From NCBI GenBank assembly GCA_038206915.1, contig JBBRAI010000012.1, positions 1,121 to 65,120 of the forward strand: DNA of 64,000 nt, in the 5' to 3' direction. Below, one piece after another: positions 2,065 through 5,736 of this stretch (within the stretch, counting starts at the first letter, position 1; every line of letters begins with the position of its first letter). The translations under genes were made by a program, and so were the position numbers. This DNA comes from Burkholderiales bacterium (GTDB lineage: Bacteria > Pseudomonadota > Gammaproteobacteria > Burkholderiales > SG8-39). The notes below the pieces were generated by a model that worked only from the letters and a program-made list of their open reading frames with translations, was not told where the DNA came from and ran no database searches.

Positions 2065-3825
2065 ATGACGAATCACCTGCGCCACCTGCTGCTCGCCCTC
2101 GTCGCACTGGTGCTGATCGCCGCGCTGGTGTTCCTTTACGAAAAGACCCAGGCAGTCGACCTGCGCGAGCGCAACGAAATCGCGGCGCTGCTCGACACGC
2201 TGCGCGAAATCGACAGCCGCTGGGACATCGACGTACTGCGCGAGCGCACCGAGCTCGACCCGAACCGGCCGGCGGCGCCCAATCGCACCGCGACGGCGAA
2301 GAAAGCGCTGGCCAATCTCAGCGCTGCCGCACCGCACGCCGGCAGCGCCGCGCTGTCCGAAGGCCTGGGCGAACTCGGCAAGGCGATCGTCGCGAAGGCG
2401 GACCTGGTGGAACAATACAAGGCTGAAAGCACGCGTGCCAAGATCGCGCTGCATACGGTAATCTCGGGTGCTGCGGCGCTGGGCGGTCAGGCAGGCGCCC
2501 CGCCCAGCGGCGACGTGCGGCAAAAATCGCTCGAGCAGGCGGTCGATCAGCTGGTCTCCGCGGTGGAGCAGTACTACCTGATGGGCAAGGCGGCGCCGCC
2601 GATGAGCCTGCAGATGAACGCCGGCGTGGTGCGGGAGCTGGCCGCCGGCGCCGGCGCGGCGGAACGCGCGCAGGCCGCCGCGATCGACGGCGCGGTGCAG
2701 GAACTGCTCAAACACAAGCCGCTGGAGGAGGACCTGTACGCCAAGGTCTCCGCACTGTCCTCGGGCCCGCGCCTGGACAAAATGAGTTTCTCCTTCAACC
2801 GCGAGCTCGAATCCACACTGCAGGAAAAGGAGTTGTTCCGCGTATACCTGCTCGCCTATGCCGCGGCGTTGCTGGTGGGCGTGGCTTATCTCGGCGTGCG
2901 CCTCAAGGCGGCGAACGAGCGGCTCGAGTTGCGCGTGATCGAGCGCACGCGTGAGTTGTCCGAGGCGCTGCGCCACCTGAAGGAATCGGAGTCGCAGCTG
3001 ATCCAGTCGGAAAAGATGTCCTCCCTCGGCCAGATGGTCGCCGGCGTCGCGCACGAGATCAACACGCCACTCGCCTACGTGAAGAACAGCCTGGGCACGG
3101 TCAGCGAGCGCCTGGCGCAGATCAGCGACGCGATCGAGCACTGCGAGAAGCTGATGGCGCTGCTGGCCGCGGGCAAGGCCGATCCGGCCGGCCTGAACCG
3201 CCAGTATGCGCAGACCGCCGAGCTGCTCGGAAAGCTCAAGCAGCAACGCGTGCTGGCCGAACTCGGCGACCTGGTCAAGGACGGCCTCTACGGCACCGGC
3301 GAGATGGCGGAGATCGTGGGCAACCTGAAGGACTTCAGCCGGCTGGACCGCAGCAAGGTGACGAGCTTCAATCTCAACGACGGCCTCAACAGCTCGCTCG
3401 GGCTCGCGCGGCACATGCTCAAGTCGATCAAGGTGACGCGGCAGTTCGGCGAGATTCCGGCCATCACCTGCGCACCCTCGCAGATCAACCAGGTGTTCCT
3501 GAACCTGATCACCAATGCGGCGCAGGCATTGCCCGACGCCGGTGGGGAAATCATTCTGAGCACGCGCGCCGAGGCCGAAGGCGTGGTGGTCGAGGTCGCC
3601 GACAACGGCAAGGGCATACCGGCGGAAGTGCTACCGAAGATCTTCGATCCCTTCTTCACCACCAAGGAAGCCGGCAAGGGCACCGGGCTCGGACTGTCGA
3701 TCTCGTTCAAGATCGTCGAGCAGCACGGCGGGCGCATCAAGGCCGTTTCGGAAGCGGGCAAGGGCACCAGGTTCACCCTGTGGCTGCCGCTGAAGCCGCC
3801 GGCCGAGGCCGAGCTTGCCGCGTAG
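2065..3825 (+). CDS. Membrane sensor histidine kinase (two TM helices flanking a helical, DAHL-like periplasmic domain; NtrB-like core)
   Basis: TM helices at the N-terminus and around residues 260-280; H-box VAHEINTPL, N-box QVFLNLITNA, G-boxes DNGKG, FDPFFTTK and GTGLGL. Confidence 0.92.
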   Translation: MTNHLRHLLLALVALVLIAALVFLYEKTQAVDLRERNEIAALLDTLREIDSRWDIDVLRERTELDPNRPAAPNRTATAKKALANLSAAAPHAGSAALSEGLGELGKAIVAKADLVEQYKAESTRAKIALHTVISGAAALGGQAGAPPSGDVRQKSLEQAVDQLVSAVEQYYLMGKAAPPMSLQMNAGVVRELAAGAGAAERAQAAAIDGAVQELLKHKPLEEDLYAKVSALSSGPRLDKMSFSFNRELESTLQEKELFRVYLLAYAAALLVGVAYLGVRLKAANERLELRVIERTRELSEALRHLKESESQLIQSEKMSSLGQMVAGVAHEINTPLAYVKNSLGTVSERLAQISDAIEHCEKLMALLAAGKADPAGLNRQYAQTAELLGKLKQQRVLAELGDLVKDGLYGTGEMAEIVGNLKDFSRLDRSKVTSFNLNDGLNSSLGLARHMLKSIKVTRQFGEIPAITCAPSQINQVFLNLITNAAQALPDAGGEIILSTRAEAEGVVVEVADNGKGIPAEVLPKIFDPFFTTKEAGKGTGLGLSISFKIVEQHGGRIKAVSEAGKGTRFTLWLPLKPPAEAELAA

Positions 3826-3837
3826 GGAGCGCCGCGC

Positions 3838-5736
3838 GTGACGCATCCGGCCAAGATCGGGAAATACGACATCCTCGACGTACTCGGCCGCGGCGGCATG
3901 GGCGCCGTGTACAAGGGCTTCGATCCGGCGATCTCGCGCGCGGTCGCGGTGAAGACCATCGCCAAGTCATCGCTGGACCAGGGCGAGCTGGAGCATCTGC
4001 TCGCGCGCTTCCGCCATGAGGCGCAGGTGGTCGGCCGGCTCACCCACCCGGGCATCGTGCAGATCTACGACTACGGCGAGGACGACGCGCTCGCCTACAT
4101 CGTCATGGAGCTGGTGAACGGCAAGACGTTGCAGGAGCACCTTGCGCAGCACGCGAACTACGACCTGCGCGAGGTCGGCGAAATCATCGGCCAGGTGCTG
4201 GACGCCCTCGGCCACGCGCATGCGGCGGGCGTGGTGCACCGCGACGTCAAGCCGTCCAACATCATGATCAACCGCGACGGCGGCATCAAGATCAGCGACT
4301 TCGGCATCGCGCACACCGAAGCCTCGGAGCTGACGCAGCACGGCGACGTGCTCGGCACGCCGCACTACATGGCGCCGGAGCAGTTCCTCGGACTGCCGAT
4401 CGGCGCTGCCACCGACCTGTACGCGGTCGGGGTGATCGCCTACGACCTGCTGACCGGCCACAAGCCCTTCAGCGGCAGCACGGCGACGGTGATGCAGCAG
4501 GTGCTCAACCAGCGGCCGGCCGATCCGTCCAGCCTGAATCCCACGCTGTCGCCGTTGGTGGACCACGAGCTGCAGCGCGCGCTGGCGAAGAAGACCGAGG
4601 AGCGCTTCCAGAGCGCGCGCGAATTCGCCCAGGCCTTCCGCCTGGCGATCGAGGCGAGCCTCGCGCCGCGGGCGCCGTCCGCGGCGGCGCCCGGCGCGGG
4701 CCTGATGGATGCCGCGCGCACGATCCAGGCCGGCGCCCTGGCGCAGGCCGCCGGCGCAGGCGCGGCGCCGCCCGAAGGCACGACAGAGGGCGCGATCAGC
4801 CTGGATCGCAGCGTGAAGCAGGCGCGGCTGCTGGTGGTGGACGACGAAGAGCGCATTCTGTCGGCGCTGAAATCGATATTCCGCATGCGCTACCACGTGT
4901 TCGCCACGACCGACGGCAACAAGGCGCTGGAGTTCATGAAGAAGTACCAGATGCACGTGATCATAAGCGACCAGCGCATGCCGATCATGCCGGGGGTCGA
5001 GCTGCTGCGCCAGGCGCGCGAAATCACGCCTGCCAGCGTGCGCATCCTGCTCACCGGCTATTCCGACCTCGCGTCCATCGTCGGCTCGATTAACGACGGC
5101 GAGGTCTACCGTTTCATCAGCAAGCCGTGGAACAACGAGGAGCTGCAGCAGACCGTCGCCGAAGCAGTGACCATCGCGCTCGAACTTGCAGACACCAAGG
5201 TCGCGCGGCTGGCGCTGCCGAAGAAAATGCGCGCCGGCGTGCTGGTGATCGACAACGACCAGGAGGTGTACCGCATTACCAAGGAACTCGTCGGCGACCT
5301 GTGCCAGGTCAGCTACGCCGGCGACCTCGATGCCGCGCTCGCCGCGATGCAGGCGCAGGAGATCGCCGTGGTGCTGGCGGACATCGAGGCCGGCCGCGAA
5401 GACACCACCGCAATGCTGAAGCTGCTGAAGCAGGAGAATCCGCAGATCCTGACCATCGTGCTCACCAAAGCCTCGGATGCCGAACTGGTGATCCATCTGA
5501 TCAACGAGGCGCAGGTGTTCCGCTTCCTCAACAAGCCGGTGAACGTCAAACAGCTGAAGCAGCACGTGCAGGACGCGCTGGTGCGCTATCTGACCTTCGA
5601 GGAGGCGCCGAAGCTGCTGCAGCGGCACCGCGTGCAGGAATCGGTGCAGGCGCGCAGTTCCTCAGGCGGGCAGAAAGTGCTCGGCGCGCTGAAGGCGCTG
5701 CGCGGGCGCTGGTTCGGCGCCGGCGGGAATACCTGA
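3838..5736 (+). CDS. Hanks-type Ser/Thr protein kinase fused to two C-terminal receiver (REC) domains
   Basis: Kinase motifs [33 protein letters not shown]1 VVDD..SDQRMP..LTG..KPW; REC2 VIDND..LADI..LT..KPV. GTG start 12 nt after the HK stop. Confidence 0.9.

Follow-up and report, generated by a model that had tools for sequence, protein, structure and literature searches.

A sensor histidine kinase gene paired with a Hanks kinase-receiver-receiver fusion gene in Burkholderiales: a candidate relay from His-Asp to Ser/Thr phosphorylation

Links between bacterial two-component systems and Ser/Thr phosphorylation are known mostly as kinases that act on response regulators, or systems of the HsbR type, whose kinase is not of the Hanks type. 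In PleD of Caulobacter, tandem active and adaptor receivers control an enzyme by dimerization. Response regulators whose output is an enzyme form a known class, and one published list names no Hanks kinases among them (PMC2222644). In HsbR (PA3346) of Pseudomonas aeruginosa, the state of the receiver controls the output of a Ser/Thr kinase, whose activity is higher while the receiver carries no phosphate (PMC5812489). Our analysis concerns a stretch of 64,000 nucleotides from a Burkholderiales bacterium (assembly GCA_038206915.1, contig JBBRAI010000012.1, positions 1,121 to 65,120), referred to below as the window. In it, a gene for a membrane sensor histidine kinase (HK) is followed by a gene in which a Hanks Ser/Thr kinase is fused to two receiver domains (REC1 and REC2).

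The HK, whose sensor is a DAHL domain, and the kinase-REC1-REC2 protein probably constitute one relay, in which phosphorylation of REC1 would switch the Hanks kinase on or off through dimerization or membrane docking. We hold this proposal to be slightly likelier right than wrong.

The gene pair and its domains

The two open reading frames (ORFs) lie on the + strand, start with ATG and GTG, respectively, and are 12 nt apart (Table 1). In the first protein, Pfam detects DAHL (PF19443), HisKA, and HATPase_c, the domain content of a class I sensor HK. The DAHL score is above the Pfam cut-off and the domain is flanked by two predicted membrane segments, as in a DAHL sensor. The DAHL domain was described in the Campylobacter jejuni chemoreceptor Tlp10, which binds several ligand classes including malate (PMC9796306). 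Because Tlp10 takes several classes, the ligand of the present domain is not predictable.

The second protein yields Pkinase (E = 7.5e-55) and two Response_reg stretches (E = 7e-33), and Pfam gives only kinase and receiver families. A preliminary description, made from the sequence alone, had reported an HK followed 12 nt later by a protein with a Hanks kinase, a linker, and two receivers, with no DNA-binding output domain. The ORFs, Pfam, and all of the motifs that it quoted bear this out, and the sensor domain, which it had left to a Pfam scan, is DAHL. It had also stated that no other response regulator is nearby; on the 77-kb contig, our own profiles find no further receiver, HK ATPase domain, or Hanks kinase. 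The module is present once in the source genome, and the G+C content of its region (0.66) is the same as that of the remainder of the window. Among the NCBIfam families displayed, none attains its cut-off for either protein; the HK scores 228.7 bits against T2SS_HK (NF038348), below 450, and only its cytoplasmic part aligns. Promoter and terminator scans of the region gave results at chance level only.

The kinase domain carries every motif of catalytic competence (GRGGMG at 17, VAVK39, E61, HRDVKPSN at 134, DFG at 154, and APE at 179) and is predicted to be intact. K39, E61, HRD, N141, and the DFG Asp (D154) are invariant in 111/111 close homologs. The nearest solved relatives of the kinase are PknA, PknB, and StkP (phmmer E = 1e-52 against PknA and 4e-49 against PknB). 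Among relatives taken from the 120 best kinase-domain matches of 152-487 aa, 54 proteins of at least 400 aa have no receiver match, and in 40 of them an Ala/Pro/Thr linker is followed by a membrane segment. Because of this post-linker segment, the fusion resembles a receptor kinase with its membrane span and ectodomain replaced. Single-pass receptor Ser/Thr kinases are the closest relatives of the kinase half. In the fusion itself, Pfam finds no PASTA repeats, and no membrane segment follows the kinase (best hydropathy beyond residue 280, 1.52; threshold, 1.8). Its match to NF033483 reaches 301 bits, under the cut-off of 450.

The linker between kinase and receivers is variable, ranging from 50 to over 250 residues. 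A motif within it, LLxAARxL, occurs in 90 of 119 fusion linkers, versus none of 52 post-kinase regions of other relatives, and is modeled as a helix with a low predicted local distance difference test (pLDDT) score in both models.

REC1 has the features of a canonical phospho-receiver, namely, an acidic pair, a phospho-Asp, a Thr/Ser, and a Lys-Pro. D335, D336, T406, and K429 are present in 140/140 family members, and D378 in 139/140. REC1 is likely the phospho-acceptor. REC2 is diverged yet retains D472, D515, T543, and K566; it has no xxMP loop, and position 473, where the second acidic residue would be, has N, K, P, or some other residue. The preliminary description had reported a full pocket in REC1 and the Asp, Thr, and KP kept in REC2; the absent acidic residue and loop of REC2 add to that reading, as does a conserved basic and hydrophobic helix at the C-terminus of the protein. 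Helix 1 is variable in REC2 (mean entropy in fusions, 2.22 bits, versus 0.88 in REC1), and the alpha4-beta5 face of REC2 is conserved. These profiles suggest that REC2 is likely an adaptor rather than a second acceptor.

Tail positions 610, 614, 618, 621, and 625 are hydrophobic in 67-96% of rows, with Lys/Arg between them and few acidic residues. Membrane-targeting helices of the MinD/FtsA type are C-terminal, basic, amphipathic, and membrane-binding. We hypothesize that the tail helix likewise binds the membrane; it may instead pack on the receivers, and its high pLDDT could reflect such packing. When REC1-REC2-tail is modeled alone by AlphaFold, it forms one confident unit, with a predicted template modeling score (pTM) of 0.83.

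Conservation, pairing, and relatives that lack the kinase

With a profile built from 19 fusions, 401 genomes sampled across the order were searched; 69 of them, representing 15 families, carry the fusion at nearly its full length (E at most 1e-222). Four of the carriers are single-contig genomes (G454, G467, G710, and G753). Of 22 genomes from the same genus, 14 have a match to the receiver half at E below 1e-150, one of which is cut by a contig end ahead of the kinase. Over the receiver half, the best 120 protein clusters, which include the window's own, have 70-100% identity (70-94% for the other 119), and several are named by their sources as Burkholderiales proteins.

An HK is encoded directly upstream of 43/44 fusion genes in wide loci; the remaining gene is at a contig edge. 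In 28/28 further fusion loci, an HK ATPase domain is encoded on the same strand within 1.5 kb. The adjacency that the preliminary description had singled out for a search is therefore strict in these loci. All 39 untruncated HKs of fusion loci match our DAHL profile, for which mainly fusion-linked HKs were used; Pfam finds DAHL in 6/7 distant fusion-linked HKs and in 2/2 of another set. In 42 full fusions, the kinase and receiver trees agree in the deepest split and in most starred clades, and few rows differ. The HK and the fusion are supported as a presumptive cognate pair. The median ratio of nonsynonymous to synonymous substitution (dN/dS) over nine orthologs is 0.17 for the kinase, 0.10 for REC1, 0.26 for REC2, 0.26 for DAHL, 0.53 for the linker, and 0.54 for the tail. 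By this measure, purifying selection acts on the kinase, and more strongly than on REC2 or the sensor. Longer fused forms (for example, the HK joined to the fusion) gave seven matches, each covering only 37-54% of the receiver query, which is weak evidence.

Representatives at 50% identity were searched with the receiver half, and the best 150 were analyzed. They include 25 proteins with a kinase and 122 REC1-REC2 proteins with no kinase match, about ten of which look like fusions cut at the N-terminus. In four longer members of the kinase-less group, Pfam finds receivers only. The genes of these kinase-less pairs (REC-REC') have an HK gene directly upstream in 64 of 73 loci; six are at contig edges, two of them being cut fusions, and three have none. 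Among 37 HKs scanned from such loci, eight have CBS, six DAHL, five dCache, and one MHYT-PAS, and the others have no recognized sensor. A tree of 143 receiver pairs places every one of the 28 fused rows in the same subtree of 50 rows (SH-aLRT 90), mixed with 22 rows labeled kinase-less, and the fused or kinase-less label needs 10 changes on the tree. A single origin of the fusion seems plausible. Four kinase-less members (P0202, P0226, P0256, and P0257) have a short N-terminal extension with a SVVELAR-like motif that loosely resembles LLxAAR and is possibly a remnant or precursor of the fusion linker motif.

In seven loci from Alpha- and Betaproteobacteria and metagenomes, genes for a dihaem cytochrome c peroxidase (CCP_MauG), a DAHL HK, and a kinase-less REC-REC' form a unit (Table 1). 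The peroxidase-like protein may be a periplasmic co-sensor of DAHL kinases. A tblastn search gave no match to a dihaem cytochrome c peroxidase gene in the window's genome. On an Agrobacterium plasmid (L096:710-3892), a gene for a 1060-aa FHA-domain protein is divergent from the peroxidase-HK-REC-REC unit.

The proposed relay and its alternatives

The domain content, the intact motifs, the gene pairing, the largely shared trees, and the purifying selection rest on direct observation, whereas each phosphorylation step, the gating, and the substrates belong to a scheme that we infer. A periplasmic ligand would set the autophosphorylation of His330, and the phosphate would pass from His330 to Asp378 of REC1, with REC2 acting as an adaptor that folds with REC1 as one unit. 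Phosphorylation of REC1 would rearrange REC1-REC2 and the basic C-terminal helix, and thereby alter dimerization or membrane docking. The flexibly tethered kinase domains could then pair back to back like those of PknB and autophosphorylate the activation loop. An FHA protein might recognize the phospho-Thr marks and a PP2C remove them, both proteins being encoded elsewhere in the genome. As to origin, the receiver module likely stands where a receptor kinase once had its membrane span and ectodomain.

Back-to-back pairing via L33 activates PknB (bioRxiv 10.64898/2026.10.08.757607), and L33D/D76A impairs StkP in vivo (PMC13434768). The equivalents of this dimer face by alignment, Ile32, Arg34, and Asp78, are kept in 62/62 intact fused kinases and lost in six of eight decayed ones. 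The sign of control by REC1 could go either way, because the HsbR kinase is favored by the unphosphorylated receiver (PMC5812489) and the title of PDB 2vui describes an inhibitory phospho-state of HupR.

The source genome has one FHA gene that adjoins a PP2C gene (contig C28), and a second PP2C gene that adjoins another kinase gene (contig C6). The FHA family is found in 62/69 fusion genomes versus 151/332 others, one of the 151 being flagged as unpublished (G693). Six of the seven fusion genomes that lack it are at most 85% complete. In its fullest form, the proposal is that a receptor-type Hanks kinase exchanged its span and ectodomain for an HK-controlled module of REC-REC' and amphipathic helix, with His-Asp phosphorylation driving docking and back-to-back activation and feeding an FHA/PP2C network. 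This whole chain of events is tentative, and we find it somewhat doubtful.

Several observations count against the relay. The full-length AlphaFold model has a pTM of 0.47, with a disordered linker and no fixed pose of kinase relative to receivers, although the individual domains are confident. In eight of 70 fused kinases, a sample biased to high-scoring matches, residues for catalysis or regulation are gone, with REC1 almost unchanged: core catalytic residues are missing from three (P0129, P0158, and P0189), the alpha-C Glu together with the activation loop from four, and the RD Arg from one. Six of these kinases group in a single clade, one member of which is a protein named from Usitatibacter, and it is in this clade that all six losses of the dimer face fall; moreover, the dimer-face residues are general to bacterial Hanks kinases. 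In a hydrophobic-moment test, just 13 of 143 single tail sequences were more amphipathic than their shuffles, and the window's own tail is weak (0.39). Most of the distant representatives have the receiver pair without a kinase, a separate kinase gene lies near a kinase-less pair in only 2 of 73 loci, and the kinase-less relatives have no recognized output domain. The overlap with FHA genes is among related genomes, and hence is no independent test and a lead only.

The decayed kinases and the predominance of kinase-less relatives favor the main alternative, an account in which REC1-REC2-tail keeps an ancestral output, binding of a partner protein or of the membrane, and the kinase is an ungated passenger or second input tethered to it. 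The module might then localize the kinase, or the kinase might phosphorylate the receivers or the HK as feedback. Consistent with such an account, kinase-less pairs regularly follow HKs with varied sensors and have no other recognized domain, the receiver module folds confidently alone, the linker is variable, and the kinase has decayed in at least two lineages in which the fusion is retained. However, 62 of the 70 fused kinases in the biased sample are intact, the kinase is under tighter constraint than REC2 or the sensor, the fusion is retained across 15 families, and a conserved linker helix occurs in the fusions, so that we consider the account unlikely. A relay in which both receivers are phosphorylated, with REC2 serving as a second input or phosphate sink, could explain why D515 is kept in 33/34 fusions versus 50/106 kinase-less relatives (Glu in 40/106) and in 110/111 close homologs, and why the Lys is kept in 30/34 fusions. 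We regard this as distinctly improbable: the non-acidic position 473 and the missing xxMP loop speak against it, as do the change of Thr543 to Ala in 7/34 fusions and the variability of helix 1, where a kinase would dock. Thus, where the preliminary description had the HK phosphorylate REC1 and/or REC2, the cognate pairing stands, and an adaptor role for REC2 is more likely than that of a second acceptor.

The source genome is in 132 contigs and the flanking genes vary between lineages, as might be expected if the fusion or the pairing were an assembly chimera or a recent accident. The chance of this is minute in view of the 119 further clusters, the same-genus orthologs, the carriers across the order, including those in single contigs, and the largely agreeing trees. 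The isolated or chimeric fusion, which the preliminary description had named as a way for its proposal to fail, is ruled out by the same-genus, cluster, and order-level matches. We continue to prefer the relay through REC1.

The fusions with decayed kinases are P0129, P0148, P0158, P0168, P0223, and P0248; P0189; and P0130 and L177:8540-10633. In these, the alpha-C Glu is absent, the activation loop is short, or a catalytic Asp or Lys has been lost, whereas REC1 is intact. One genome (G038) has a tandem duplicate, with an intact copy and an HQD copy. Such natural versions with decayed kinases amount to built-in controls.

Gene context and comparison with known systems

A multicopper oxidase gene (window 1-1749) lies upstream of the HK gene. 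Its start is just outside the window, and its N-terminus is, by eye, twin-arginine-like (RR-x-FL); a gene that by eye resembles RCC1 repeats precedes it. The oxidase gene is not one of the neighbors that recur at orthologous loci. Downstream of the pair are a gene for a 103-aa stand-alone Ion_trans_2 (potassium-channel-like) protein (5909-6220), a Cys-rich DUF1847 gene on the - strand (6232-6957), and a group (7131-11262) of MoxR/CoxD-like AAA, malonyl-CoA decarboxylase, CoxE VWA, and CoxG genes, with the decarboxylase between the AAA and VWA genes. The DUF1847 gene flanks the pair in 12 related loci and the AAA gene in 13. Neighbors of fusion loci vary (riboflavin/glyA genes, DUF1847 and CoxD/E-like genes, liv ABC genes, hemF, and purD), and among the loci compared no conserved substrate gene is found beside the pair. 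A liv ATPase gene is present in 15 fetched fusion loci and three more, and is absent from the flanks of the window's pair.

Elsewhere in the source genome, the PP2C and FHA genes are adjacent at L229:3452-5134 (G000:C28), and the kinase profile finds no Hanks kinase on that contig. The C-terminal stretch of this PP2C is basic and hydrophobic, similar to the tail of REC-REC family members. A second receiver-kinase protein of the genome is a REC-adenylate/guanylate cyclase-Hanks kinase fusion with a 743-residue open frame (L230:1120-3348, G000:C34). Two soluble Hanks kinases (G000:C62:16506-17894 and G000:C120:1673-2953) have C-terminal parts that by eye resemble cyclic-nucleotide-binding domains.

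Table 1. Positions of the features of the gene pair in the window, and of the loci with a peroxidase gene
Feature	Position	Strand	Evidence
Membrane sensor histidine kinase gene, transmembrane-DAHL-transmembrane-HisKA-HATPase_c, 586 aa	2065..3825	+	ORF, Pfam
First predicted transmembrane segment, HK residues 7-25	2083..2139	+	Best 19-residue hydropathy 2.79
Extracytoplasmic DAHL sensor domain, HK residues 31-259	2155..2841	+	PF19443 E 1.9e-18, 67.4 bits vs cut-off 38
Second predicted transmembrane segment, HK residues 260-278	2842..2898	+	Best 19-residue hydropathy 2.11
Predicted phospho-His330 in H-box HEINT	3052..3054	+	Pfam, motif location
HATPase_c domain with N, G1, F, and G2 boxes	3475..3795	+	PF02518 E 9e-30, motifs located
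GGAG, Shine-Dalgarno-like, immediately 3' of the HK stop and 8 nt ahead of the GTG start	3826..3829	+	Sequence
Ser/Thr kinase-linker-REC1-REC2-tail gene, 632 aa	3838..5736	+	ORF, Pfam, motifs
Hanks kinase domain, RD type; activation-loop Thr166 and Thr174; PknB back-to-back dimer-face equivalents Ile32, Arg34, and Asp78	3859..4653	+	Pfam, alignment
Short helix motif LLxAARxL/I, residues 289-296, within the variable Ala/Pro linker	4702..4725	+	Motif counts, models
REC1, canonical receiver of the HupR/HD-GYP-type subfamily; D335, D336, phospho-Asp378, T406, and K429	4819..5187	+	Alignment, fold search
REC2, atypical receiver; D515, T543, and K566 kept, second acidic residue and xxMP loop missing; likely adaptor	5233..5628	+	Alignment, column profile
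C-terminal basic helix, hydrophobic at 610, 614, 618, 621, and 625; predicted membrane-binding or packing helix	5665..5712	+	Profile of 140 family members, model
Peroxidase-HK-REC-REC' loci	L095:4099-7987, L096:4103-7927, L113, L127, L129, L146, L181

Galperin's census of response regulators reportedly includes receiver-Ser/Thr-kinase proteins, and the ESM Atlas has clusters with Pkinase and Response_reg in Pseudomonadota, Acidobacteriota, Myxococcota, and Planctomycetota. No studies of the fusion family or of the kinase-less pairs were found in the literature searched, which covered few subscription journals and no supplements, where genome-wide domain tables may list the architecture. The fusion family is real and conserved and apparently unstudied, and would be a type of response regulator with enzymatic output. 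Accordingly, the preliminary description's term "undescribed system" can be kept for the family in that literature, but not for the general kind, which includes the clusters in several phyla and HsbR, a studied Ser/Thr kinase of a different fold under receiver control (PMC5812489).

The kinase-less pairs share the receiver family and the C-terminal helix with the fusion and sit behind a related HK, sometimes one with DAHL, but have no kinase. Examples are WP_089418281/WP_089418280 of Vitreoscilla filiformis and WP_111808491/WP_111808493 of Agrobacterium fabrum pAt3. Dichelobacter TwmR, on which no paper was found, is a candidate member of the family. PA2882/PA2881 of P. aeruginosa (371 and 303 aa), whose function is listed as unknown (PMC10714779, PMC5812489), may belong to these pairs as well.

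The best structural matches of REC1 are 3hv2 (Z 22.9; root-mean-square deviation (rmsd) 1.2; 124 residues aligned) and HupR 2jk1 (Z 20.4), and NosR (NF053512) matches the receiver part below its cut-off. Regulators of the HupR and HD-GYP types have an AAA+/HTH or HD-GYP output, whereas the fusion has neither. For the receiver pair, the top Foldseek match is PleD (REC-REC'-GGDEF, E = 3e-14). The fusion differs from PleD in having no GGDEF by Pfam and in its enzyme-first order, and identity is 18-19%. Against the predicted model of the pair, PleD gives a template modeling score of 0.44 and an rmsd of 8.8 Å, the receivers being arranged differently. A wide fold search was filled with single receivers, and no solved chain with such a two-receiver arrangement is among the matches listed.

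If the relay is correct, a dedicated sensor HK would be wired to a Hanks-kinase output, the reverse of the direction in which most described links run. Kinase activity would offer a readout for receiver pairs of this family, which occurs across Pseudomonadota without a recognized output domain. In the fullest form of the proposal, the widespread output-less REC-REC' regulators would be phosphorylation-switched dimerization modules or membrane anchors.

Like PknB, PknA, and StkP, the fusion has an RD kinase, activation-loop threonines, the residues of the back-to-back face, and an Ala/Pro-rich linker after the kinase; unlike them, it has a receiver pair in place of the membrane segment and PASTA. 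The kinase of HsbR is of the HATPase (RsbW/SpoIIAB) fold, versus the Hanks kinase of the fusion. HsbR is a REC-PP2C-kinase protein fed by the HptB phosphorelay, whereas the fusion is without PP2C and has an N-terminal kinase, two C-terminal receivers, and an adjacent classical HK. Pfam finds no PP2C-like domain or N-terminal REC of the HsbR type in the fusion, only the kinase and receiver families. The module may be likened to a one-protein bacterial counterpart of the fungal relay from two-component proteins to MAP kinases.

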